The translations under genes were made by a program, and so were the position numbers. 64,000 bases of DNA from the NCBI GenBank assembly GCA_963705725.1, contig CAVPKM010000013.1, forward strand, positions 25,862 to 89,861, in the 5' to 3' direction. A model generated the notes under the pieces. That model saw nothing but the letters and a program-made list of their open reading frames with translations. It was not told where the DNA came from and ran no database searches. The stretch comes from an uncultured Gammaproteobacteria bacterium (GTDB lineage: Bacteria > Pseudomonadota > Gammaproteobacteria > UBA6002). Positions 7,070 through 63,594 of the stretch are shown here, piece by piece (the stretch's first letter is position 1; each line of letters begins with the position of its first letter).

Positions 7070-7908
7070 AATAAATGATTCATTGTTTCATGCAAGGGTG
7101 AATTATTTAGCCCTTTTACAAGGATTCCATTCAATGGTTTTGGTAATTGAACTGCTACTCTTTCAGCGGTTTCTTTGTCTTCAAAAGTAGCAAAAACAGC
7201 GCTGCCCGTACCTGTCATCTTAGCTGCAGAATACTGATTAAGGCATTCAAGTGCATAAGCTATTTCTGGAAAGTGTTTTTTTGCAATAGGTTCGCAATCA
7301 TTTTTTCCGCCATTTGCAAAAAACTCATCTATTGTGATCGCTCGGGTGTTACGTGTCAATTGAGAATCGGAAAAAATTTTTGAAGTGGGGGTATTGCAAT
7401 GAGGAAGCACTAATAAAACCCAGGGCTCCGATAAAGCGAGAGGGTGTAATATTTCTCCTATGCCTTCTGCAAAAGCCGCCTTTCCTAATATAAAAATGGG
7501 GATATCAGCGCCAAGCGTAAGCCCAATCTGTGCCAAGCGCTCCTTGGATAAATGGAGCTCCCAAAGCTGGTTTAAAATAAGTAATGTTGTTGCGGCATTG
7601 GAACTGCCGCCACCTAACCCAGCGCCGATCGGAATTTTTTTTTTAAGTTCAATCGTGATCCCGCAAGGTGATTGAGTCATTTTTTGTAATAAGCGAGCAG
7701 CTTTCGTGATGAGATTGTCTTCAGAAGTCAGGTTAGGTAAATTGGTTTTTAGCGCTATAAGGCTGTCTTTTCTGGGTTCGAAAATCATTTCATCGCAAAA
7801 ATCAATGAATTGAAAAGCCGTTTGTAGTAAATGGTAACCATCAGAACGGCGTCCGATAATATGTAAAAATAAATTAATTTTTGCAGGCGAGGGGACGATA
7901 AAAGACAT
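7006..7908 (-). CDS. ispE: 4-diphosphocytidyl-2-C-methyl-D-erythritol kinase
   Basis: GHMP kinase motifs (PIGAGLGGGSSNAA); lolB-ispE-tRNA-prs synteny. The reading frame stays open through ~60 nt of the tRNA-Gln gene (see findings). Confidence 0.85.
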   Translation of the reverse strand: MSFIVPSPAKINLFLHIIGRRSDGYHLLQTAFQFIDFCDEMIFEPRKDSLIALKTNLPNLTSEDNLITKAARLLQKMTQSPCGITIELKKKIPIGAGLGGGSSNAATTLLILNQLWELHLSKERLAQIGLTLGADIPIFILGKAAFAEGIGEILHPLALSEPWVLLVLPHCNTPTSKIFSDSQLTRNTRAITIDEFFANGGKNDCEPIAKKHFPEIAYALECLNQYSAAKMTGTGSAVFATFEDKETAERVAVQLPKPLNGILVKGLNNSPLHETMNHLFGVSPSGKAQGFDPCIPRFES

Positions 7909-16682: not shown

Positions 16683-18434
16683 TTACATCACATTTGGAGC
16701 AGATACCCCGATAATTTGCAGGCTATTTGCTAGTACTATTTTAATCGCAAAGATTAATCCTAATCTTGCATTTCTCATTGCCTCATCTGAAACGATAAAT
16801 TTGCAAGCATTGTAATAGGCATGAAAGCGATTGGCTAAATCTTGCAGGTAGTGTACCAGAATATAAGGCTCGTAATTGATGGCTGCTGCTTCTATCGTTT
16901 CTGGATATTGTGAAAGCAAGCGCAATAAATCTTTTTCATTATCAGTAGTTAATAGATGAGAAAAGCGAGAGAGTGATACACTTTCAAAAGCAATCGCTTG
17001 ATGTTCGAGCTGGCGCATGACGCTGCAAATTCGAGCATGAGCATATTGAATATAAAAAACGGGATTTTCGTTCGTTTTTGATTTTGCTAGTTCCAGATCA
17101 AAATCTAAATGTTGGTCCACTTTTCTTGTTAAATAAAAAAAGCGTGTGGCGTCATTACCCACTTCCTTGCGTAATTCGCGCAAGGTCACAAATACTCCGC
17201 CGCGAGTTGTCATTGGGATTTTTTGCTTGCCGCGATATAGTGCAACAAATTGCACGAGTTGAACGGTTAATTTACGCTCATCTTTGCCTACTGCTCGTAG
17301 AAAAGATTTAATTCGGGGAGCGTAACCATGATGATCAGCGCCGAAAATATCGACCATCAAGTCAAACCCTCTTTCGAATTTATTTAAATGATAACCAACA
17401 TCTGAGGCAAAATAGGTGGCTTGACCATTGTCCCGGATGACAACTCGATCTTTTTCATCGCCATAGGACGTCGCTTGAAACCAAGTTGCGCCATCGCGTA
17501 CATAGATGCAGTGGTTCTGGTGTAGCTGATCAATGCCATTTTGAACATCACCATTGTTCTCAAGGCTTTTCTCCGAGAACCATTCTTGAAAAGTGATGCC
17601 AAATTCAGCTAGATCTTCATGGATGTCAGTTAAAATTTGTTTAAGGCCAAGATTAAATAGGATTTCGTAGTCATTGCCTAGCAAGTTTTTAGTACGCGAA
17701 ATCAAGGCATCGATATAAATTTCTTTATCGCCCTGACCATCTTCAGTTTCATCAAGAGGCAGATCTTGAAAAATTTGGTGAATAGGTCTTAAAAATTTTT
17801 CTTGATGCAGAGATTTAACTACTTTTGCAACATCAATGACATAGTTAGCAACGTAGCCATTTCTTGGAAAAGTAATCGACTCACCGAGTAGCTCAAGATA
17901 TCTTAACCAAATACTGATGGCCAAAATATGCATTTGGCGCCCAGCATCATTCACGTAATACTCACGATGAACTTTATAGCCAACCGCTTCAAGTAAATTG
18001 GCTACGGTGGCTCCATAAGCTGCGTGCCTTCCGTGCCCAACATGTAGCGGGCCAGTTGGATTGGCAGAAACAAATTCCACAATGGCTTTTTTCCCTGCGC
18101 CTAAGGAAGATTGACCATAGATACCATCCTGCTTAATGATTTCAGCAATAATTTGTTGCAAAGCCTGATCTGTGAGATGAAAGTTGATAAAACCTGGCCC
18201 AGCCATTGCAACTTGTTTGATTTCTGCAGTAACCGGAAGATGAGAAATAATTTTTTTGCCAAGGTCTTGGGGATTAATTTTTAATGTTTTTGCTAGAGCC
18301 ATAGCCGTGTTGCAGGCAAAATCACCATGCTTGCTATCCCGAGTTCGTTCGATATGAATTTTCTCAGGCATATCCGATTCATTTAAAAATTGATGTAAAC
18401 TTGCTCGTACTAAGCTTGCAATTTTTGCTTTCAT
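16683..18434 (-). CDS. argS: arginine--tRNA ligase
   Basis: HVGH (PTGPLHVGHGR) and KMSK-like motifs. Start placed at the conserved MKAK…; the ORF track has a longer upstream extension. Confidence 0.9.
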   Translation of the reverse strand: MKAKIASLVRASLHQFLNESDMPEKIHIERTRDSKHGDFACNTAMALAKTLKINPQDLGKKIISHLPVTAEIKQVAMAGPGFINFHLTDQALQQIIAEIIKQDGIYGQSSLGAGKKAIVEFVSANPTGPLHVGHGRHAAYGATVANLLEAVGYKVHREYYVNDAGRQMHILAISIWLRYLELLGESITFPRNGYVANYVIDVAKVVKSLHQEKFLRPIHQIFQDLPLDETEDGQGDKEIYIDALISRTKNLLGNDYEILFNLGLKQILTDIHEDLAEFGITFQEWFSEKSLENNGDVQNGIDQLHQNHCIYVRDGATWFQATSYGDEKDRVVIRDNGQATYFASDVGYHLNKFERGFDLMVDIFGADHHGYAPRIKSFLRAVGKDERKLTVQLVQFVALYRGKQKIPMTTRGGVFVTLRELRKEVGNDATRFFYLTRKVDQHLDFDLELAKSKTNENPVFYIQYAHARICSVMRQLEHQAIAFESVSLSRFSHLLTTDNEKDLLRLLSQYPETIEAAAINYEPYILVHYLQDLANRFHAYYNACKFIVSDEAMRNARLGLIFAIKIVLANSLQIIGVSAPNVM

Positions 18435-18506
18435 GAGGTTTCTTCTTAATTCGGATAGACAGGCTGAAGCAAAGATTCTAACAGATAAAGCCAATAAATG
18501 GTGTAA

Positions 18507-25386: not shown

Positions 25387-25913
25387 ATGCAAGATTCCCA
25401 AACTAATAATATATTTCTAGTGGGCCCGATGGGGGCAGGTAAAACCTCTGTTGGAAAGTTGCTCGCAAAAATATTGAATGTTCCTTTCTTTGATTCAGAT
25501 CAGGTGATCGAAGCACAAACAGGTGCCGATATCCCTTGGATTTTTGATGTGGAAGGTGAGGAGGGGTTTCGGAAGCGAGAAGAGAAAATCGTCGATGATT
25601 TAAGTAAAAAAAAGGGATTGTTCTCGCAACGGGGGGTGGAGTGGTACTTAAGGCTGATAATCGTCGTCATCTTGCTGGGCGAGGAACAGTTATTTATTTG
25701 CATGTCAGTATCGAGGAGCAACTGAATCGTACTTATCGTAGTCGAAATCGGCCGCTCCTATTAAAGCAACCCAACCTCAAAGCCATTCTTGAAAAGTTGC
25801 ACTTAGAAAGGGATTCGCTTTATGAGCAAATAGCAGATCATATCATTGACACGGATCATGGTTCTCTTAAGGGAATTGTTGATTCCATTTTAACTCGAGT
25901 GAAAAAAACATGA
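25387..25913 (+). CDS. aroK: shikimate kinase, interrupted by a frameshift at an A8 run (25606-25613)
   Basis: [14 protein letters not shown]alker A. Downstream frame (ORF 25641..25913) carries the rest of AroK (GRGTVIYL…). One extra A in the A8 run restores [15 protein letters not shown]. Confidence 0.8.
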
Positions 25914-26997
25914 TCACACCAATTAAGCTAATAGTGAATTTAGCAGGGCAAACTTATCCTGTTTATATAGGAGAGGATCTATTCAATCGAAATTTGCTCC
26001 ACCCCTATATTTTAGCTGAGCAAGTATTAGTCGTGACGAATGAGAAGGTCGCGCCCTTATATTTAGCCAAATTAAGGCAGGCGCTTTCCCATTATCAATA
26101 TAATGAAATTATTCTCCCTGATGGAGAAGTTAACAAGACCTTGCCAGTTGCTAATCAAATTTTTGACCAACTTGTTGAGCTTGCATATCGCCGGTAATGC
26201 TACATTAATTGCATTGCGGAGGCGGAGTAATCGGTGATTTGACAGGATTTGTGGCTGCTTGCTACCAGCGTGGTGTTAACTATATTCAACTCCCTACGAC
26301 CTTACTTAGCCAGGTGGATGCGGCCATCGGTGGGAAAACCGCGGTGAATCATCCCTTGGCAAAAAATATGATTGGGGCATTTCATCAGCCAAGGGCTGTG
26401 TTAATTGATATTCATACCTTGCAGACCCTTCCATTTCGTGAATATAAATCAGGCATTGCGGAAATTATTAAAGCGGCATTAATCAGTGATGAAGAATTTT
26501 TTTGTTGGTTAGAGTCTAATTTGGAGAGAGTGCTTAATCGAGAAACCTCTGCCTTGATTTATGCGATTCAACAAGCTGCTGCAATCAAAATAAAAATAAT
26601 TACCGCCGATGAAAAGGAAAAAGGGGTAAGAGCTTTTTTGAATTTAGGTCACACCTTTGCGCATGCAATTGAAAATTCTCTTGGCTACGGAGTGTGGTTG
26701 CATGGAGAAGCAGTCGCCGTGGGATTAGTTTTGGCGGTAGATTTGTCAATACGTTTAGGCTGGATTAATCAGTCAATAGGGGATCGAGTCAGAAAAATTT
26801 TGATGTCGGCAGATTTACCGATTAACTTACCAAGCGAAATCTCAGTCGATCAGCTGATTGCGGCTATGAATAAAGATAAAAAGAAAGAAGCAGAAGCCAT
26901 AAAATTTGTATTACTTAAAGAAATTGGACAGCCTATATTAAGTGCCAATCTAGATCAATCCTTGCTTGAGCGCATCTTGACTGAAAATCAAATTTGA
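25910..26997 (+). CDS. aroB: 3-dehydroquinate synthase, interrupted by two close frameshifts (~26185-26225)
   Basis: N-terminal ORF (25910..26197) and C-terminal ORF (26209..26997) together cover AroB. The intervening NATLIALGGG glycine motif is readable only in the third frame. Confidence 0.8.
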
Positions 26998-53964: not shown

Positions 53965-55641
53965 ATGGTAAATAAAGCAACTACTTACTGGCGATATTAT
54001 TTTGTGCTTATCGGGTTATTTCTGGGTGGGTTATTGTTACTTTGGCGAATGATTGATTTAAATTTTTTGCAGCGGTCATTTTTGTTGCAACAAAGTAATG
54101 CCAGAATACTGAGAACCCTCAACATTCCTGCTTATCGAGGAATGATTACCGATCGTTTTCAGCAACCACTAGCCATTAGTGCACAAGTCGATTCTATCTG
54201 GATAAATCCACAACTATTTGAACCCACCCCTTTGCAAGTCTTAAAACTTTCGCGCTTATTAAAAATGCCCGTGTCTAAAATTTATGATAAAACCTCAAAA
54301 CGTTCAGCTAAAGAATTTCTTTATTTAAAAAGAGGAGTCTCGCCAGCGATCAGCCAGAAAGTCAATTCGTTGATGATTCCAGGATTATTTTCTCAACATA
54401 ATTATCATCGTTTCTATCCGCAAAGTGAGGTGGTGGCTCATATCATTGGTTTCACGAATATTGATGATCAAGGACAGGAAGGTTTGGAGTTGGCCTATGA
54501 CAGTTGGTTAAGAGGTATTCCTGGCAAAAGAAAAGTATTCAAGGATAGGCTTGGGCACATAATTACGGATTTGGGTATTATTCAGCAGCCAAAACAGGGG
54601 CATAACCTTGTATTAAGTATTGATAACCGTGTTCAATATCTCGCTTATGAAGAATTGAAGGAAAGCATTAAAACATTTAATGCTAAGTCTGGTTCCATTA
54701 TTGTGCTTGACACTCAAACAGGTGAAGTGTTAGCCATGGTGAATCATCCTTCTTATAATCCAAATCGTATAGAAAATAACACAGATGGTCGATATCGTAA
54801 TCGAGCTGTGACAGACGTCTTCGAGCCAGGTTCAACGCTTAAAGCGTTCAGTGTGGCCAATGCTTTAGAATCCGGCATTTATTCTCCCAATACTCAGATT
54901 GATACTAATCCAGGATGGTTGAATGTAGTCGGTAGCTCAACCCCAATTCGAGATGAAAATAATAATGGCATCATCAGTGTGGTGCGAGTTTTACAAAAAT
55001 CCAGTGATGTGGGTGTGGCTAAAATGACCTTCTCCCTTCCTCCGGATCGTTTGGCTGAAATGTTGCATCGCGTTGGTTTTGGAGAGCGCACGAGCACGAT
55101 GTTCCCTGGAGAAGCTTCTGGAACATTGGCATATCGTACCAAGTGGCGACCGATTGAGCTTGCAACGCTTGCCTTTGGTTATGGCATTTCAGTGACAACC
55201 GTGCAGCTTGCCCAAGCCTATTCAATTATTGCTGAAAATGGCATCCAAAAGCCCGTATCTTTATTGAGAGTTGATAAAACAATTGCCGGCAAGCGAGTAT
55301 TGTCAAAAAAGATAGCAAATCAAATGCTATTAATGCTAGAGGCCGTAGTACAAGGCGGCACGGGGTCGTTGGCTAAAGTTGCAGGATATCGAGTGGCGGG
55401 CAAAACGGGTACCGCTTATATAGCAACGAAGGGGGGGTATGATAAACAACGCTATGTTTCTTCATTTGTCGGTATTGCGCCTGTCACTCGACCGCGCTTG
55501 GTTGTCGCTGTGATTATTCGAGAACCGCATGGACAGAAACATTTAGGTGGTTTGGTTGCTGCGCCGACTTTTTCAAAAGTGATGTCGGGGGCGCTTCGAT
55601 TGCTGAATATTCCTCCTGATGATTTGGCGGTAGAAGATTGA
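53965..55641 (+). CDS. ftsI: peptidoglycan D,D-transpeptidase FtsI (PBP3)
   Basis: STLK (FEPGSTLKAF), SSDVG (SxN-like) and KTGTA motifs; 558 aa. Confidence 0.9.
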   Translation: MVNKATTYWRYYFVLIGLFLGGLLLLWRMIDLNFLQRSFLLQQSNARILRTLNIPAYRGMITDRFQQPLAISAQVDSIWINPQLFEPTPLQVLKLSRLLKMPVSKIYDKTSKRSAKEFLYLKRGVSPAISQKVNSLMIPGLFSQHNYHRFYPQSEVVAHIIGFTNIDDQGQEGLELAYDSWLRGIPGKRKVFKDRLGHIITDLGIIQQPKQGHNLVLSIDNRVQYLAYEELKESIKTFNAKSGSIIVLDTQTGEVLAMVNHPSYNPNRIENNTDGRYRNRAVTDVFEPGSTLKAFSVANALESGIYSPNTQIDTNPGWLNVVGSSTPIRDENNNGIISVVRVLQKSSDVGVAKMTFSLPPDRLAEMLHRVGFGERTSTMFPGEASGTLAYRTKWRPIELATLAFGYGISVTTVQLAQAYSIIAENGIQKPVSLLRVDKTIAGKRVLSKKIANQMLLMLEAVVQGGTGSLAKVAGYRVAGKTGTAYIATKGGYDKQRYVSSFVGIAPVTRPRLVVAVIIREPHGQKHLGGLVAAPTFSKVMSGALRLLNIPPDDLAVED

Positions 55642-55666
55642 TAATAATTCGCATTGAGCAGAACAA

Positions 55667-57154
55667 ATGAAAAAAACATTGAAAATCAGCGAGCTATGTC
55701 AAGGGTTGGCGGTTGTTTCAGAAAAAGAAGACCGAGAGATAACTGGAATTGGTTCCGATAGTAGAGAAATCCAGCCAGGTGGATGTTTTGTTGCCTTGCC
55801 TGGATTAAATCAAGATGGTAGTCATTTCATTATGGATGCCATCCAAAGAGGAGCAGCAGCGGTTTTAATAGATGACGGAATACCTGCTTTGCAAGGAATA
55901 TCTGTACCGCTTATCCGGATTTCAAGGTTAACAGAAAAAGTGGGTGAAATTGCATCGCGTTATTATGATCATCCCAGTGAAAAAATTTCGCTAATTGGGG
56001 TTACCGGTACGAATGGAAAAACTTCGACCACGCAATTTATTGCGCAAGCAATGATGCAGCATGCTATGCCATGTGCAGTAATGGGCACCTTAGGTTATGG
56101 TTTCCCGAACCAGTTAACTCCTTCCTCCCACACGACTTCCACGAGTTTTGCATTATATCGTCAGCTAGCCGAGCTTGCTCAACAGGGCGCAAAAACGATT
56201 GCGATGGAGGTATCTTCTCATGCAATTGATCAAAAAAGAATTGCTGGGTTAACTTTTGACAGCGCTATTTTTACCAATTTATCTCAAGATCATCTTGATT
56301 ATCATTTAACCATGGAAAATTATGGTGCAGTCAAAAGGCAGTTGTTTTATACCCGAGGATTGAAGCAAGCCATCATCAACCTAGATGATAATTTTGGATT
56401 TTACTTGGCTAAGGAACTTCAAGATATTTTGCCTGTATACGGTTATGGTTTAAAACATCATGAGATAAATATCCCCTCTGTCTTGGTCAAACGCGCTTAT
56501 TTTAACGGTAAAGGAATGGCTGCTCAAATTTCTTCACCATGGGGAGAGGGTCAACTGCGATCTCGACTGCTAGGTAGATTTAATTTAAGCAATTTGCTTG
56601 CTGTAATTACTGCATTACAGTTACAAGGAGTAGATTTTCACCAGGCATTAAAATATGTAGATCAATTACAAACGGTACCCGGAAGAATGCAGGTATTAGG
56701 TGGGGGTAAGTTACCTTTAGTAGTGGTAGATTATGCTCATACGCCCGATGCCTTACTGCAAGTTTTGCTTGCGCTTAGGGAGCATGCGCATGGAGCATTA
56801 TGGTGTATATTTGGTTGTGGTGGCGATAGGGATAAGGGTAAAAGACCGATTATGGGACAAATTGCAGAAAGATATTCTGATCATCTTATTATTACAGATG
56901 ATAATCCACGAACAGAGCATGCTGGGGAGATCGTGAACGATATTATGAACGGTTTACTTTGCCCCTGGGCGGTGGAAATTGAGCATGATCGCGGCGCCGC
57001 GATTGCTCACGCGATTAATTGTGCTAGTCCAGGAGATGTGGTGCTAGTTGCAGGAAAAGGTCATGAGGAATATCAAATTATTGGTCAGGAAAAAATACCG
57101 TTTAGTGATGTTTCGCATATACAATCGCAATTACGTTTAAAGCAGAAGATGTGA
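55667..57154 (+). CDS. murE: UDP-MurNAc-tripeptide synthetase (meso-DAP adding)
   Basis: GVTGTNGKTST P-loop; DNPR (DDNPRTE) motif characteristic of MurE; 495 aa. Confidence 0.9.
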   Translation: MKKTLKISELCQGLAVVSEKEDREITGIGSDSREIQPGGCFVALPGLNQDGSHFIMDAIQRGAAAVLIDDGIPALQGISVPLIRISRLTEKVGEIASRYYDHPSEKISLIGVTGTNGKTSTTQFIAQAMMQHAMPCAVMGTLGYGFPNQLTPSSHTTSTSFALYRQLAELAQQGAKTIAMEVSSHAIDQKRIAGLTFDSAIFTNLSQDHLDYHLTMENYGAVKRQLFYTRGLKQAIINLDDNFGFYLAKELQDILPVYGYGLKHHEINIPSVLVKRAYFNGKGMAAQISSPWGEGQLRSRLLGRFNLSNLLAVITALQLQGVDFHQALKYVDQLQTVPGRMQVLGGGKLPLVVVDYAHTPDALLQVLLALREHAHGALWCIFGCGGDRDKGKRPIMGQIAERYSDHLIITDDNPRTEHAGEIVNDIMNGLLCPWAVEIEHDRGAAIAHAINCASPGDVVLVAGKGHEEYQIIGQEKIPFSDVSHIQSQLRLKQKM

Positions 57155-58509
57155 GGATGAAAATGAACCTTCAATTAAGTGAGTTGGCAGAGATTGTAGG
57201 TGGAGAATTGCTGGGTGAGAATCAAATTATCACTTCACTTTCAACCAATACGCGAGAATTAACAGCAGGACAGCTCTTTATCGCGCTAAAAGGTGCACAG
57301 TTTGATGGGCATGACTTTTTGCAGTCTGCCTATGAAAAAAAAGCCGCAGGGGTAATTATTTCGAAGAGACAGTCATTGCCCATTCCAAGTATTACCGTTG
57401 AAGACACCAAGCTAGCCTTAGGTAAAATAGCTGCATTTCATCGACAACAATTTCCAATTCCGGTCATCGCGATAACCGGCAGTTGTGGTAAAACCACCAC
57501 GACGGCTATATTGGCAACTATCCTAAATTGTATGGCCCCAACCCTGGCTCCAATAAAATCATTCAATAATGATATTGGTGTGCCACTCACGCTTTTGCAG
57601 TTAACTTCCAAACATCGCTATGCGGTAATTGAAATGGGAGCAAACCATCCTGGTGAAATTGCATACCTAAGCCGCCTGGCTGGTCAACAGTTTTCTATCA
57701 TTACAAACGTGGCGCCTGCTCATCTTGATGGCTTTAAAACTTTAGCAGGAGTGGCAAGTGCAAAGGGAGAAATTTTTGAGGCTTTAGCTGACGAGGGTAT
57801 GGCTGTTATTAATGCAGATGATCAGTTTGCAGACTATTGGCGAAAATTAATCAAAAATAAAAAAATGATCACTTTTGGAATTAAAAAAACTGCAGATGTT
57901 TATGCCAAGAACATTGGTTTAACAGAAACAGGAAATCCACAATTCGAGTTGTTTTCTCCTCATGGCAAATGTGAAATTAGGCTTCCTTTACTCGGGGAGC
58001 ATAATGTAAAGAACGCACTTGCGGCGATAGCTGCGGCCATTGCCGTAGGAGCAACAAAAGAGGCGATTCAACAAGGATTGGCCAGTGTTCAACCGGTTAG
58101 CAGCCGACTCAACAATTATAAAGGTTTGGCTGGAGCGGTGGTGATTGATGATACTTATAATGCCAATCCTTTATCTGTTGAGGCGGCATTACAAACCCTT
58201 GCTCATCGCAAGGGGGAGAGATTTTTCATTTTTGGCGACATGGCAGGGCTTGGCCAGGATGAAGCGGATTTTCATCGCGAAATTGGTTTACTCGCTAAGC
58301 GTTTAGGTATTGATAAATTATTGGCATGTGGCAAGCTCTCCGAGCTAGCTGTCAATCAATTTGGAAAAAACGGTTATCATTTTGAGAGTCAAGCAAGTTT
58401 GATCGAAACCTTGAAATCACAATTGCATGACGATGCTATCGTGCTCGTTAAAGGATCGCGTTCATCACAAATGGAAAACATCGTACAAGCTATTATCCAG
58501 GAAAAATAA
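57151..58509 (+). CDS. murF: UDP-MurNAc-pentapeptide synthetase
   Basis: [12 protein letters not shown]-loop; Mur ligase domains; 452 aa. Confidence 0.9.
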
Positions 58510-58510
58510 A

Positions 58511-59592
58511 ATGTTACTTTGGCTAACAAAATATCTTGAAAAATTTTGGCATTTTTTTCATGTTTTTCACTATCTGACATTTAGGTCTATTTTGAGTACA
58601 TTGACGGCATTGGTGCTCTCATTGCTAATTGGTCCTTATATGATTCAAAAGCTTACAGATTACCAAATTGGTCAGACCGTTCGTAATGATGGTCCAAAGA
58701 CCCACTTGAAAAAAAAGGCACCCCAACCATGGGTGGGGGGTTAATTTTAATTGCGATTGCATTTAGTATTTTTTTATGGGGGGATTTAACCAGCAGCTAT
58801 GTTTGGATAGTGTTGCTGGTAACCCTATGTTTTGGTGCAATTGGTTGGGTGGATGACTATCGGAAATTAATTAAAAAAGATACACGTGGATTGCCAGCTA
58901 AATGGAAATATCTTTGGCAAACAGTGGTTGGATTGCTCGCAGCTATTTTACTTTACCATATTGCAAAATTGCCTGTTGAAACACGCTTAATCGTTCCCTT
59001 CTTTAAGAATATATTTATACCGCTTGGAATAATGTACATTCCTTTTGTCTATTTTGTCATTGTTGGTGCAAGTAATGCAGTAAATTTGACAGATGGATTA
59101 GATGGCTTAGCGATATTGCCAACCGTGATGGTGGCGGGTGCATTAGGGGTATTTGCCTATACCACGGGGAATTCTCAATTCGCGAATTACCTGGGTATTC
59201 CTTATATTGCAGGCGTAGGTGAGGTCGCGGTCTTTTGTGCGGCCTTAGTTGGAGCCGGACTTGGCTTTCTATGGTTCAATACTTATCCCGCTCAAGTCTT
59301 TATGGGAGATGTGGGGGCGCTGGGTTTGGGAGCGGCCTTGGGTGTGGTTGCTGTTGTCGTGCGACAAGAATTAGTGCTGCTAATTATGGGCGGAGTTTTT
59401 GTCATTGAAACCATTTCTGTTATTTTACAAGTTGCGAATTACAAGCTGACAGGCAAACGTATTTTTAGAATGGCTCCTCTTCATCATCATTTTGAGTTGA
59501 AAGGTTGGCCTGAGCCGCGCGTTATTGTTCGATTTTGGATCGTCACCTTTGTGCTGGTGTTGTGTGGTTTAGCTACCTTAAAACTTAGGTAA
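58511..59592 (+). CDS. mraY: phospho-N-acetylmuramoyl-pentapeptide transferase, interrupted by a -1 frameshift at an A8 run (58709-58716)
   Basis: [29 protein letters not shown]…[13 protein letters not shown] | [14 protein letters not shown]… Both halves match MraY; A9 instead of A8 gives one continuous ~360-aa protein. Confidence 0.85.
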
Positions 59593-59627
59593 TCTGAACG
59601 GTTGGGCACTTTAAGAGGAGAACGATT

Positions 59628-60971
59628 TTGATTAAACGTGATGGTAAAGTCATCGTTGGACTTGGAAAAACAGGTCTCTCATGTGTCAACTTTTTGAAAT
59701 CGAGAGGAGTGCCGGTAGCAGTTACCGATAGCCGCCTAGCACCGCCTGGATTAGAAGAGTTGGTAGCGGCTTTTCCAGATATTCCAGTGGAAGTGGGCGG
59801 ATTTAATGAAAAACTCCTGCAGGCTGCAACAGAGTTAATCGTGAGTCCCGGTGTTTCCATTAAAGAGCCGCTTATTGCAGCTCAGCAAAAGCGCGGGATA
59901 TCAGTGATTGGAGATATTGAATTATTTGCAAGGTATGTTGAAAAACCTGTTGTCGCTATCACGGGATCAAATGGTAAAAGTACCGTGACGTCCTTGGTGG
60001 GTTTTCTTGCAGAACAAAGCGGCAAGAACGTAAAAGTTGGAGGCAACCTTGGTATTCCCGCACTTGATTTGTTAGGCAATGAGTTAACAGAGATGTATGT
60101 GTTGGAGTTATCTAGCTTTCAGTTAGAAACCACTTACACACTTAAGACAGCCTCGTCGGTGAATTTGAATATTTCTGCTGATCATATGGATCGATATGAT
60201 AGCCTGCTTGATTATGCTAAAGCTAAATTGCGTATTTATCAGCATTGTGAGCTTCCAGTAGTTAATTTAGATGATCCTTTAAGTTATCAGGGATTTCATT
60301 TCTCCACAGAGCCTGCAGGTTTTACTCTCAATGAACCAACTGGAAATAATTATGGATTGAGAACCCTAGCTGGAGAAAAATATCTGTTTCGTGGTCAGGA
60401 AAAATTACTGCCAGTTAATGCGCTGGGGCTTCGAGGTCGGCATCAATATGCAAATGTTCTGGCTGCTTTAGCGGTGGGCGAACAAATTGGGCTTTCCTTA
60501 CCATCCATGCTTAAAAATATTGTCGAATTTAAAGGTCTATCTCATCGCTGCCAATGGGTTGCAAATATTGACGGGGTAGATTGGTATAATGATTCTAAAG
60601 CAACAAATATTGGTTCTACTGAAGCCGCTCTTTCAGGAATTGGTCCTGAGATAAATGGAAAAATTGTTTTATTGGCAGGAGGTCAAGGTAAGAACGCGGA
60701 TTTTAGTGAGTTATATCAATCGATTTCACAATTTGTAAAAACCCTCATTCTATTCGGGGAAGATAAGTCTCTGATTGCACGAGATGTAGAGGGCGCAACA
60801 AGCATTCAGTTCACAGACGATTTAGAATCGGCGGTGATGATTGCAAAAAAATTAGCCGTTGAAGGAGATGTGGTGCTGTTATCGCCTGCTTGTGCAAGTT
60901 TTGATATGTTTAAAAATTTTGAACATCGAGGAGAAATGTTTATGTGCTTCGTCAGGAGGCTAATCGCTTGA
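59628..60971 (+). CDS. murD: UDP-MurNAc-L-Ala--D-Glu ligase
   Basis: N-terminal Rossmann (VGLGKTGLSCV), AITGSNGKST P-loop; 447 aa. Confidence 0.9.
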   Translation: MIKRDGKVIVGLGKTGLSCVNFLKSRGVPVAVTDSRLAPPGLEELVAAFPDIPVEVGGFNEKLLQAATELIVSPGVSIKEPLIAAQQKRGISVIGDIELFARYVEKPVVAITGSNGKSTVTSLVGFLAEQSGKNVKVGGNLGIPALDLLGNELTEMYVLELSSFQLETTYTLKTASSVNLNISADHMDRYDSLLDYAKAKLRIYQHCELPVVNLDDPLSYQGFHFSTEPAGFTLNEPTGNNYGLRTLAGEKYLFRGQEKLLPVNALGLRGRHQYANVLAALAVGEQIGLSLPSMLKNIVEFKGLSHRCQWVANIDGVDWYNDSKATNIGSTEAALSGIGPEINGKIVLLAGGQGKNADFSELYQSISQFVKTLILFGEDKSLIARDVEGATSIQFTDDLESAVMIAKKLAVEGDVVLLSPACASFDMFKNFEHRGEMFMCFVRRLIA

Positions 60972-62122
60972 TTCTAAAAAAAAACAAGCAACAGCAAATA
61001 TTTCTCGATCCGTGGATTTTAACTGCCAGCCTATCGATAATGATGATTGGCCTATTGATGGTAACTTCCGCATCGATGGTAATTTCAGAACAGATTTTTA
61101 ATTATCCTTTTCACTTTCTTTTTCATCAGTTGGCCTATTTGGCGCTAGGTGGTATGCTCGGCATCCTCCTCTTCCGGGTCGATCTTCATCGCGTGCGAGT
61201 GGTTGGAAACTATTTATTTATTGCTTGCCTATTTTTCTTAATGCTGGTGCTGATTCCTGGCATTGGTCATAAAGTGAATGGCAGTACTCGGTGGATTGGG
61301 TTTGGTCCATTAACTTTACAAGTATCCGAACTTGCTAAGTTCAGCGTTATTCTCTATCTGTCAGGATATTTGGTCCGCAGAAATGAAGAAATTCAAACCA
61401 AGATAACAGGTTTTATCAAGCCCTTATTCCTTCTCTCTATTGTTGCCTTTTTTCTTTTGCTTGAACCCGATTTTGGTGCGACCACTGTTATCATGGTGAC
61501 GGCACTGGGCATGATGTTTTTGGCAAGAGTAAAATTATCACAATTTGTGGCTTTATTTGTGATAGTGGCAGGTGCTTTAGTCTTGCTTGCTGTCACCTCT
61601 CCTTATCGTTTACAGCGAATTACCACTTTTTTACATCCTTGGGAGAATCCATTTGACAGCGGATACCAGTTGACGCAATCCCTTATTGCTTTTGGGCGCG
61701 GAGGGGTAACCGGTGTGGGGCTCGGGAATAGTATTCAGAAATTGTTTTATTTGCCTGAAGCGCAAACCGACTTTCTATTTGCTGTGCTTGCAGAAGAAAC
61801 AGGATTTATCGGCGAATTCATTGTCATTGCGTTATTTGCATTATTAGTGGGAAGAATTTTTTATATTGCTAAGCAAGCGCTTGCCCAAGCTAAACCCTTT
61901 GAAGCATATTGTGCATTTGGCTTTGGATTATGGCTTGGAGTTCAGGCCATGATAAATATTGGCGTTAACTCGGGATTATTGCCAACAAAAGGGCTCACAT
62001 TGCCCTTCATGAGTTATGGCGGGAATAGTTTATTAGTAAACTGTGTAGTGCTTGCCATCTTACTGCGAATAAGCCACGATTGTCGGCAGCTGACAAATGT
62101 CAGAGTAGTAAAAAGAGTATAA
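60944..62122 (+). CDS. ftsW: peptidoglycan glycosyltransferase FtsW (SEDS family)
   Basis: 10-TM SEDS protein with …PEAQTDF…FGRGG… conserved blocks; 392 aa. True start probably a little downstream of the overlap with murD. Confidence 0.85.
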   Translation: MLRQEANRLILKKNKQQQIFLDPWILTASLSIMMIGLLMVTSASMVISEQIFNYPFHFLFHQLAYLALGGMLGILLFRVDLHRVRVVGNYLFIACLFFLMLVLIPGIGHKVNGSTRWIGFGPLTLQVSELAKFSVILYLSGYLVRRNEEIQTKITGFIKPLFLLSIVAFFLLLEPDFGATTVIMVTALGMMFLARVKLSQFVALFVIVAGALVLLAVTSPYRLQRITTFLHPWENPFDSGYQLTQSLIAFGRGGVTGVGLGNSIQKLFYLPEAQTDFLFAVLAEETGFIGEFIVIALFALLVGRIFYIAKQALAQAKPFEAYCAFGFGLWLGVQAMINIGVNSGLLPTKGLTLPFMSYGGNSLLVNCVVLAILLRISHDCRQLTNVRVVKRV

Positions 62123-62181
62123 ACACGTACGTTTTAGAAAAATTCTACTATAACTAAAGAATTAGGTATTTTGGAGAAGAT

Positions 62182-63594
62182 ATGAACTTAAGTTCCAGCA
62201 TGGAAAATTTCAAAAAAATTCATTTCATTGGGATAGGCGGCGCTGGAATGGGTGGCATTGCAGAGGTTGTGGTTAATCAAGGCTATGAAGTATCGGGATC
62301 TGACCTGAGTGAAAATAATGTTACCCAGCATCTTGAGAAACTGGGTGTAAAATTTATTAAGGGTCACCATGAAAATAATATCACCGGCGTTGATCTGGTT
62401 GTTTATTCCAGTGCAATTCCCAATAATAATCCTGAACTAACGGCCGCCATAAATAAAAATATTCCCCATATTCCTCGAGCCAAAATGTTGGCGCTGTTAA
62501 TGAGACCTAAATATGGAATAGCAATTGCAGGAACCCATGGTAAAACCACTACGACAAGTTTGGTGGCGAGTGTGTTAGCTCAAGGAGACCTTCAACCCAC
62601 TTTTGTGGTAGGCGGGCGACTTGAAAGCGTTGGGACGAATGCACAACTGGGTGCGGGTAAATATTTTGTCGCTGAGGCAGATGAAAGCGATGCCTCCTTT
62701 CTTTTCCTGAAACCCAAAATTGCAATTATTACCAACATCGATAGCGATCACCTTAATACTTATAATGGAGAGATGTCAGCGCTGTGCGATTCTTTCTTAC
62801 AGTTTGTTGCTGAGATTCCACCAGACGGCTTAGTAGTAATTTGTGCTGATGACGAAATTGCTATAAGTTTACAAAAAGACATTAAGGCCCCCACCTTGAC
62901 CTATGGTTTTAATCCGCAAGCAGATATTCAGATTACTGCTTTTTCCCAGTGTGGCTTGGAAAGTTGTTTTCATATAGTCGATAAGATCAACCAATCAGAA
63001 TCCGATGTTCGTCTAAGTTTGGCAGGAAAACATAATGCGCTTAATGCTTTAGCGGCAATAGCGGTGGCTCGTAAGCTTGAAGTCCCAGAAGAAAAAATAA
63101 ATAAAGCCTTGTCCAATTTTATGGGCATAGGAAGACGATTCCAAATTTACGGAGAGGTTGCCATCCCTGATGGAGAAGTAACCGTGATTGATGATTATGG
63201 TCATCACCCAAGGGAAATTGCAGCAACCCTTGATGCAATTCGCTTAGTTTGGCCAGATCGTAGAGTAGTGATGGCTTATCAACCGCATCGCTATACGAGA
63301 ACCTTTGCCTTAATGCAAGAGTTTGCCAATATATTATCAATTCCTGATGTATTATTGCTGCTTGATGTTTATTCTGCAGGAGAAGAACCTATCCAGGGCG
63401 CAGATAGCCAATCACTTTGTCAGCAGATTAAAAAAATTGGAAAAATTTCACCCTATTTTGTTCCAAGCATTGATCAATTGCCTGATGCAGCAAAACAAGT
63501 ATTAAAAGATGGAGATATTTTTTTAATTCAGGGGGCTGGAAGTATCGGACAGATGGCGGCTAAATTGTTTTCAAAAAAAACCGAGCAAAAATAA
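62182..63594 (+). CDS. murC: UDP-MurNAc--L-Ala ligase
   Basis: IHFIGIGGAGMGGIAE, AIAGTHGKTTTT motifs; 470 aa. Confidence 0.9.
   Translation: MNLSSSMENFKKIHFIGIGGAGMGGIAEVVVNQGYEVSGSDLSENNVTQHLEKLGVKFIKGHHENNITGVDLVVYSSAIPNNNPELTAAINKNIPHIPRAKMLALLMRPKYGIAIAGTHGKTTTTSLVASVLAQGDLQPTFVVGGRLESVGTNAQLGAGKYFVAEADESDASFLFLKPKIAIITNIDSDHLNTYNGEMSALCDSFLQFVAEIPPDGLVVICADDEIAISLQKDIKAPTLTYGFNPQADIQITAFSQCGLESCFHIVDKINQSESDVRLSLAGKHNALNALAAIAVARKLEVPEEKINKALSNFMGIGRRFQIYGEVAIPDGEVTVIDDYGHHPREIAATLDAIRLVWPDRRVVMAYQPHRYTRTFALMQEFANILSIPDVLLLLDVYSAGEEPIQGADSQSLCQQIKKIGKISPYFVPSIDQLPDAAKQVLKDGDIFLIQGAGSIGQMAAKLFSKKTEQK

Follow-up and report, generated by a model that had tools for sequence, protein, structure and literature searches.

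A frameshift at an A8-GG tract in mraY of an uncultured gammaproteobacterium is probably a base-calling or consensus artefact

The heptamer A_AAA_AAG is the most shift-prone one in Escherichia coli, and the frameshift in dnaX yields an additional, shorter product and does not mend a broken gene. Heptamers that lack a stimulator shift in E. coli at only 2-10 times the background of 0.055% (PMC4066793). Corrective recoding of frameshifted genes is documented for poly(A) tracts of bacterial endosymbionts: in an aphid endosymbiont, 12-50% of the transcripts of frameshifted cell-wall genes are corrected by poly(A) slippage (PMC5009743), and each Blochmannia genome carries 4-8 such frameshifted genes, essential ones among them (PMC3017870). 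The slippage tracts documented in these studies are 9-12 nt long, contain at least nine A and belong to AT-rich, reduced endosymbiont genomes (PMC3017870, PMC5009743). Homopolymer indels also arise in the consensus of long-read data, where genes become fragmented, above all when coverage is lower than about 40x (PMC9262707). Here we compare with these systems a one-base frameshift that splits mraY in an uncultured gammaproteobacterium and conclude that the split is most likely not a real biological feature.

The DNA analysed here, referred to as the window, is a stretch of 64,000 nt (GenBank assembly GCA_963705725.1, contig CAVPKM010000013.1, positions 25,862 to 89,861 of the forward strand), and all coordinates are positions within it. 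The mraY gene starts with the ATG at 58511 on the plus strand and contains a run of eight A (58709-58716) that opens at codon position 1 and is directly followed by GG (58717-58718). An earlier note on this DNA had placed a -1 frameshift in this run, and both its coordinates and its frames proved exact. Frame 0 reads CAC TTG AAA AAA AAG GCA CCC CAA CCA TGG GTG GGG GGT TAA and thus ends at a premature TAA (58742-58744), giving a 77-aa product (P0132) that is recorded by NCBI, ENA and Logan. There is no single uninterrupted reading frame through the gene; the frame switches after 58716. The 5' segment (58511-58716, frame 0) comprises codons 1-68 and two bases of codon 69 and ends on the last A of the run, and residues 1-69 can be aligned with 28 relatives. 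The 3' segment (58717-59592, plus strand) lies in the -1 frame, in which GGC ACC CCA ACC ATG GGT encodes the GTPTMGG motif from G70 (GGC) onwards, and stays open until the stop codon at 59590-59592. Mechanical ORF calling begins this segment at ATG 58729, corresponding to M74; the resulting 287-aa C fragment is identical to a database protein (P0026) and covers positions 38-321 of the 321 in the TIGR00445 profile.

Insertion of a single base into the A8-GG tract (58709-58718, plus strand), which is one base short of an intact A9GG or A8GGG, yields a protein of 360 aa. No gap is needed to align this protein with the 28 relatives, all of them 360 aa long, with K68 and G70-G76 invariant, and it matches the equivalog TIGR00445 (PF00953) over positions 1-321 of 321 with 452.6 bits (cutoff, 192 bits). 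No second lesion was found inside mraY beyond the tract. The proposal that the two halves join perfectly if the run were A9 is therefore upheld with respect to the protein, but another repair would serve as well: in the closest relative (L081; 87% amino acid identity), the in-frame sequence is TTG AAA AAA AAG GGT, with A8 followed by G3. The missing base may be either A or G; extension of G2 to G3 yields the identical protein, and a change from G3 to G2 would be as parsimonious as one from A9 to A8.

The frameshift is conserved in none of the 25 nearest relatives, whose MraY proteins are all intact and 360 aa long. We also searched the JGI metagenomes for mraY in which GTPTMGG is closely preceded by a run of eight or nine A; of 120 such genes, 119 have the tract in frame. 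The lone exception, an unrelated metagenomic mraY (L146, Ga0256317_1001016), has A9, as opposed to A8 in its relatives, and is frameshifted there. When the exact mraY site was sought in the JGI metagenomes with variable tract length, there were 0 matches; as the nearest MraY is 87% identical, the species was thus found in no other sample. The lysine-run tract is thus a common feature of mraY and probably an indel hotspot rather than a recoding site. The dN of mraY against its relatives is 0.10-0.11, compared with 0.08-0.09 between intact relatives; dN/dS is uninformative in these comparisons, with dS saturated.

The gene lies between murF (57151-58509) and murD (59628-60971) within a dcw cluster of the order mraZ-rsmH-ftsL-ftsI-murE-murF-[mraY]-murD-ftsW-murC (52118-63594, plus strand, by NCBIfam profile coordinates), and its position between these two genes is kept in the relatives L081-L083. 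The matches of mraZ, ftsI, murE, murF, murD, ftsW and murC to NCBIfam profiles extend end to end; that of rsmH stops about 30 profile positions early (3-280 of 310), and the putative ftsL matched no NCBIfam family. Just past the window edge, murB and ddl are intact, as is mrcA within the window. Full-length or almost full-length NCBIfam matches were obtained for at least 38 other ORFs in the window, and the full-length housekeeping genes, about thirty beyond dcw, include fmt, ychF, pth, prs, ispE, hemA, prfA, hslUV, argS, mrcA, rplM and rpsI. Because the other dcw genes are intact, MraY is needed and must be made, and the intact cluster together with the at least 38 intact ORFs implies that selection for cell-wall synthesis is ongoing. 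A dead mraY is thus implausible, with peptidoglycan synthesis clearly under selection, in agreement with the earlier judgement that a real inactivation would be hard to accept.

In the classical dcw gene order, murG is located between ftsW and murC. Here, it is missing from this interval (60944-63594), and the same is observed in the closest relatives L082 and L083.

The window as a whole has a GC content of 39.8% and contains pilus genes, transposases and a toxin gene. The stretch from 40000 to 52000 is gene-poor and fragmented, with many short ORFs that match no family; it includes an IS66 transposase, an intact Mutator-family transposase (44897-46129) and a ParE toxin (49100-49444), as well as a weak VRP3/SpvC-like match at 41937-43031. 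An ORF of about 800 aa (32914-35325) carries ankyrin repeats, annotated on the Logan contig, and its presence along with the transposases and the toxin gene suggests a host-associated lifestyle. Candidate ORF fusions across A runs were noted at 40836 and 50592, neither with a Pfam match, and at 49055. The tRNAs in the window are tRNA-Met and tRNA-Gln only; tRNA-Lys was sought and none was found. A candidate truncated heme o synthase at the window start was rejected, the gene merely running off the window edge.

A second assembly of the same reads is available from Logan, a k-mer assembly that retains exact 31-mers seen at least twice and discards singletons (PMC12424806). The Logan contigs of run ERR10755948, found by exact-protein lookup and belonging to this organism, cover 37,464 bp of the window, and the A8-GG tract of mraY is repeated in one of them (L086; 100% identity over 4,841 bp). 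Exact lookups aimed at the source record, with the 287-aa fragment and some neighbouring products (murF, pilQ, rsmH), gave no match. Over the 37,464 bp, the two assemblies differ at four positions, namely three 1-nt indels (17315, with G3 in Logan as opposed to G4 in the window, 26193 and 26217) and one SNP (26232). In argS (16683-18494), the gene is split in Logan only (L087:1407, L088:9680), and aroB is broken twice in the window only. Because each indel breaks a conserved gene in one assembly but not in the other, the broken copy represents in every case an error or a minor variant of its assembly; the rate is about one spurious indel per 12 kb. Furthermore, a 32-kb Logan contig begins exactly inside a T10 run (7635-7644), which on the sense strand is an A10 run in the full-length ispE, in frame. 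Because Logan drops k-mers seen only once, a contig end at a homopolymer suggests differing homopolymer lengths among the reads.

The deposited contig, 243 kb long, passes through the IS66 and Mutator transposase genes. Inside the ORF of the IS66-family transposase (43267-44340, minus strand) lies a run of 108 A (43758-43865) that encodes about 35 Phe and replaces positions 67-112 of DDE_Tnp_IS66, part of the catalytic core. Such a run is almost certainly artificial, produced in assembly or processing, or it may mark a chimeric join. Taken together, the read-through of the transposases and the A108 run point to a long-read assembly with artefacts; a literature search for ERR10755948, for the prefix ERR107559 and for the sequencing platform found nothing. 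With a single set of reads behind both assemblies, a systematic miscall is not excluded by their agreement on A8-GG.

A scan in which one base was added or removed at every homopolymer flagged a second A8 run (25606-25613), located in the shikimate kinase gene aroK (25387-25913). With the GGG that follows it (25606-25616, plus strand; AGT AAA AAA AAG GGA TTG), the tract is again one base short. The two halves of aroK match positions 3-77 and 85-171 of the 173 in the AroK profile, and once repaired, the protein reaches 228 bits (cutoff, 195 bits). The lesion is of the same type as that in mraY, with an A8-GG context and an in-frame A_AAA_AAG, and is likewise present in a Logan contig of the same run (L087). 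The adjacent aroB (25910-26997) is disrupted as well. In the deposited assembly only, this gene contains an extra G at 26193 and an extra C at 26217, neither of them in a homopolymer, so that two frame changes are needed, and a synonymous SNP at 26232, all three within 40 nt (26193-26232, plus strand). The same Logan contig is free of these changes and encodes an intact 361-aa AroB (P0131). The possibility that aroB is a sign of general genome decay was therefore rejected, given that both frameshifts are absent from the second assembly.

Inside ORFs of the window, there are 24 sense-strand A runs of eight or more. In 21 of these, the next base is T or C, and none of the 21 breaks the frame; the remaining three are followed by G. 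The runs of mraY and aroK are the only two followed by GG and are also the only two out of frame (exact test on the GG context, about 0.004-0.01, post hoc). This association of the lesions with the GG context is suggestive only. It fits a context-specific miscall at the boundary between an A run and a G run, and it fits equally a tolerance of frameshifts only at A_AAA_AAG. Longer runs, seven of A9 and one of A10, keep the frame in the same assembly.

The mraY site also contains a perfect A_AAA_AAG heptamer in the 0 frame (58711-58717, plus strand), which did not figure in the interpretation given by the earlier note. Ribosomes might slip by -1 at this heptamer, which might also form part of a transcriptional slippage tract. 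No stimulatory element was found there: no downstream stem-loop exceeded shuffled controls (folding z = -0.2 for mraY and +1.0 for aroK), and no SD-like motif was seen within 20 nt upstream of either heptamer. With respect to programmed -1 frameshifting, then, both sites possess an in-frame X_XXY_YYZ heptamer but neither a stimulator nor conservation among homologues.

We consider it probable that the mraY frameshift is a base-calling or consensus artefact of an indel-prone dataset. The earlier note had offered a homopolymer error and rescue by slippage as the two possible causes, and both the pairing and the case for it stand; the 1-nt indel noise between the two assemblies of one run favours the error branch. 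The lesion is located at a long homopolymer of a gene that is otherwise intact and under evident selection, and other spurious indels occur in the dataset (three in 37,464 bp). Under this explanation, the real mraY would probably read A9-GG or A8-GGG and encode the normal 360-aa MraY; the reads of ERR10755948 would be indel-prone, probably originating from a long-read platform that under-calls the purine tract where an A run meets a G run. Both the deposited and the Logan assemblies would then have inherited the error from their shared reads, and the lesion in aroK would have arisen from this systematic miscall as well. The lesion with its repair, the intact neighbouring genes, the indel disagreements between the assemblies and the shared sequence context are observed, and only the platform and the direction in which it errs are inferred. 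Against an artefact, an assembler that relies on exact 31-mers gives A8-GG at both sites, and should the reads be Illumina, the deletion would be real. Moreover, the longer A runs called in frame indicate that under-calling is not general, and the A8-GG context would be equally expected if only A_AAA_AAG sites tolerated a frameshift. Several observations speak for a genuine 1-nt deletion with full-length MraY produced by recoding, either through RNA polymerase adding one A on the A8 run or through a -1 ribosomal slip on A_AAA_AAG, and with aroK rescued likewise: the two assemblers concur at both sites, which are the only A8-GG sites among the 24 sense A runs, and at both, the exact protein would be recovered by a -1 slip or by an mRNA with one A more. 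There is also the precedent of poly(A) frameshifts in endosymbionts, cell-wall genes included, and here, too, the gene is intact but for a single indel within sense-strand poly(A). We nevertheless regard such a rescue as unlikely. The tract is A8, shorter than the documented tracts of nine or more A; the genome, with its GC content of 39.8% and its pilus, IS and toxin genes, is not of the reduced, AT-rich endosymbiont type; the frameshift is not maintained in the 25 closest relatives or in 119 of the 120 tract-bearing mraY genes; and indel noise is proven in the dataset. Given the tract length and the type of genome, the analogy with endosymbiont slippage drawn in the earlier note is weak. Spelled out in full, the recoding scenario would require a gammaproteobacterium that is free-living or facultatively associated with a host, and whose genome is unreduced at 40% GC, to carry true 1-nt deletions in mraY and aroK at A_AAA_AAG-G, rescued by a mixture of RNA-polymerase slippage and unstimulated -1 ribosomal slippage, which we find doubtful.

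Compared with the artefact that we favour, a dead gene and a split protein are, even jointly, very improbable. If the deletion were genuine and mraY a very recent pseudogene, only some of the population might carry the defective variant, or peptidoglycan synthesis might be in the first stage of being lost in a host-associated lifestyle. The repetition of the lesion in two assemblies, the breakage of aroK and such hallmarks of host association or decay as the ankyrin-repeat protein, the transposases and the stretch of short ORFs at 40-52 kb speak for this scenario, but mraZ, rsmH, ftsI, murE, murF, murD, ftsW, murC, mrcA, murB and ddl are all intact, mraY itself has no second lesion, and its dN is similar to that among intact relatives. 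In addition, the reproducible lesions in housekeeping genes occur only at A8-GG; nonsense mutations and larger deletions are lacking, and genome decay would be expected to show a different spectrum. A pseudogene is therefore quite improbable. It is harder still to credit a split MraY, in which the 77-aa N fragment and the 287-aa C fragment translated from ATG 58729 would act together. Both ORFs are present and the C fragment does begin with an ATG (M74), but the invariant G70-T71-P72-T73 is missing from both pieces, there is no convincing ribosome-binding site 5' of 58729, and the arrangement occurs in no relative compared.

If the frameshift is an artefact, the record should list mraY and aroK as intact genes or flag them as low-quality sequence instead of calling them pseudogenes, and a reading should not count as confirmed because two assemblies of one read set agree on it. 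If, conversely, the deletion is real, an essential cell-wall gene would be sustained by slippage on eight A's outside the tiny-genome endosymbionts. That would be no new mechanism but a modest extension of known corrective recoding, reaching a short tract in a genome that is not degenerate.

Among the known systems, frameshifting of the dnaX type shares with the mraY site the identical 0-frame A_AAA_AAG, and a -1 shift is the move that restores the protein; however, the mraY site has no downstream stem-loop and no SD-like stimulator and is not conserved. The poly(A) rescue in Buchnera and Blochmannia (Tamas et al. 2008, cited in PMC3017870 and PMC5009743) resembles the present case in that a one-base indel affects a sense-strand poly(A) tract of an otherwise intact housekeeping gene, here one for the cell wall, and one additional A in the mRNA restores the protein. 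In contrast to these endosymbionts, the tract here is A8 rather than 9-12 nt or more, and the frameshift is not conserved; furthermore, the Buchnera and Blochmannia genomes are smaller than 800 kb and exceed 70% AT, whereas the genome analyzed here has 39.8% GC along with mobile elements and pili. The homopolymer errors of long-read (Nanopore or PacBio) data (Sereika et al. 2022, PMC9262707) differ from the present case in that seven A9 runs and one A10 run are in frame here, the two errors share A8-GG and do not affect the longest runs, and the platform is one that we infer. With these errors, nevertheless, the mraY lesion has in common a single-base length error at a homopolymer of eight or more within an otherwise intact essential gene, and it is accompanied by other 1-nt indel disagreements and by a k-mer contig that ends at a T10 run.
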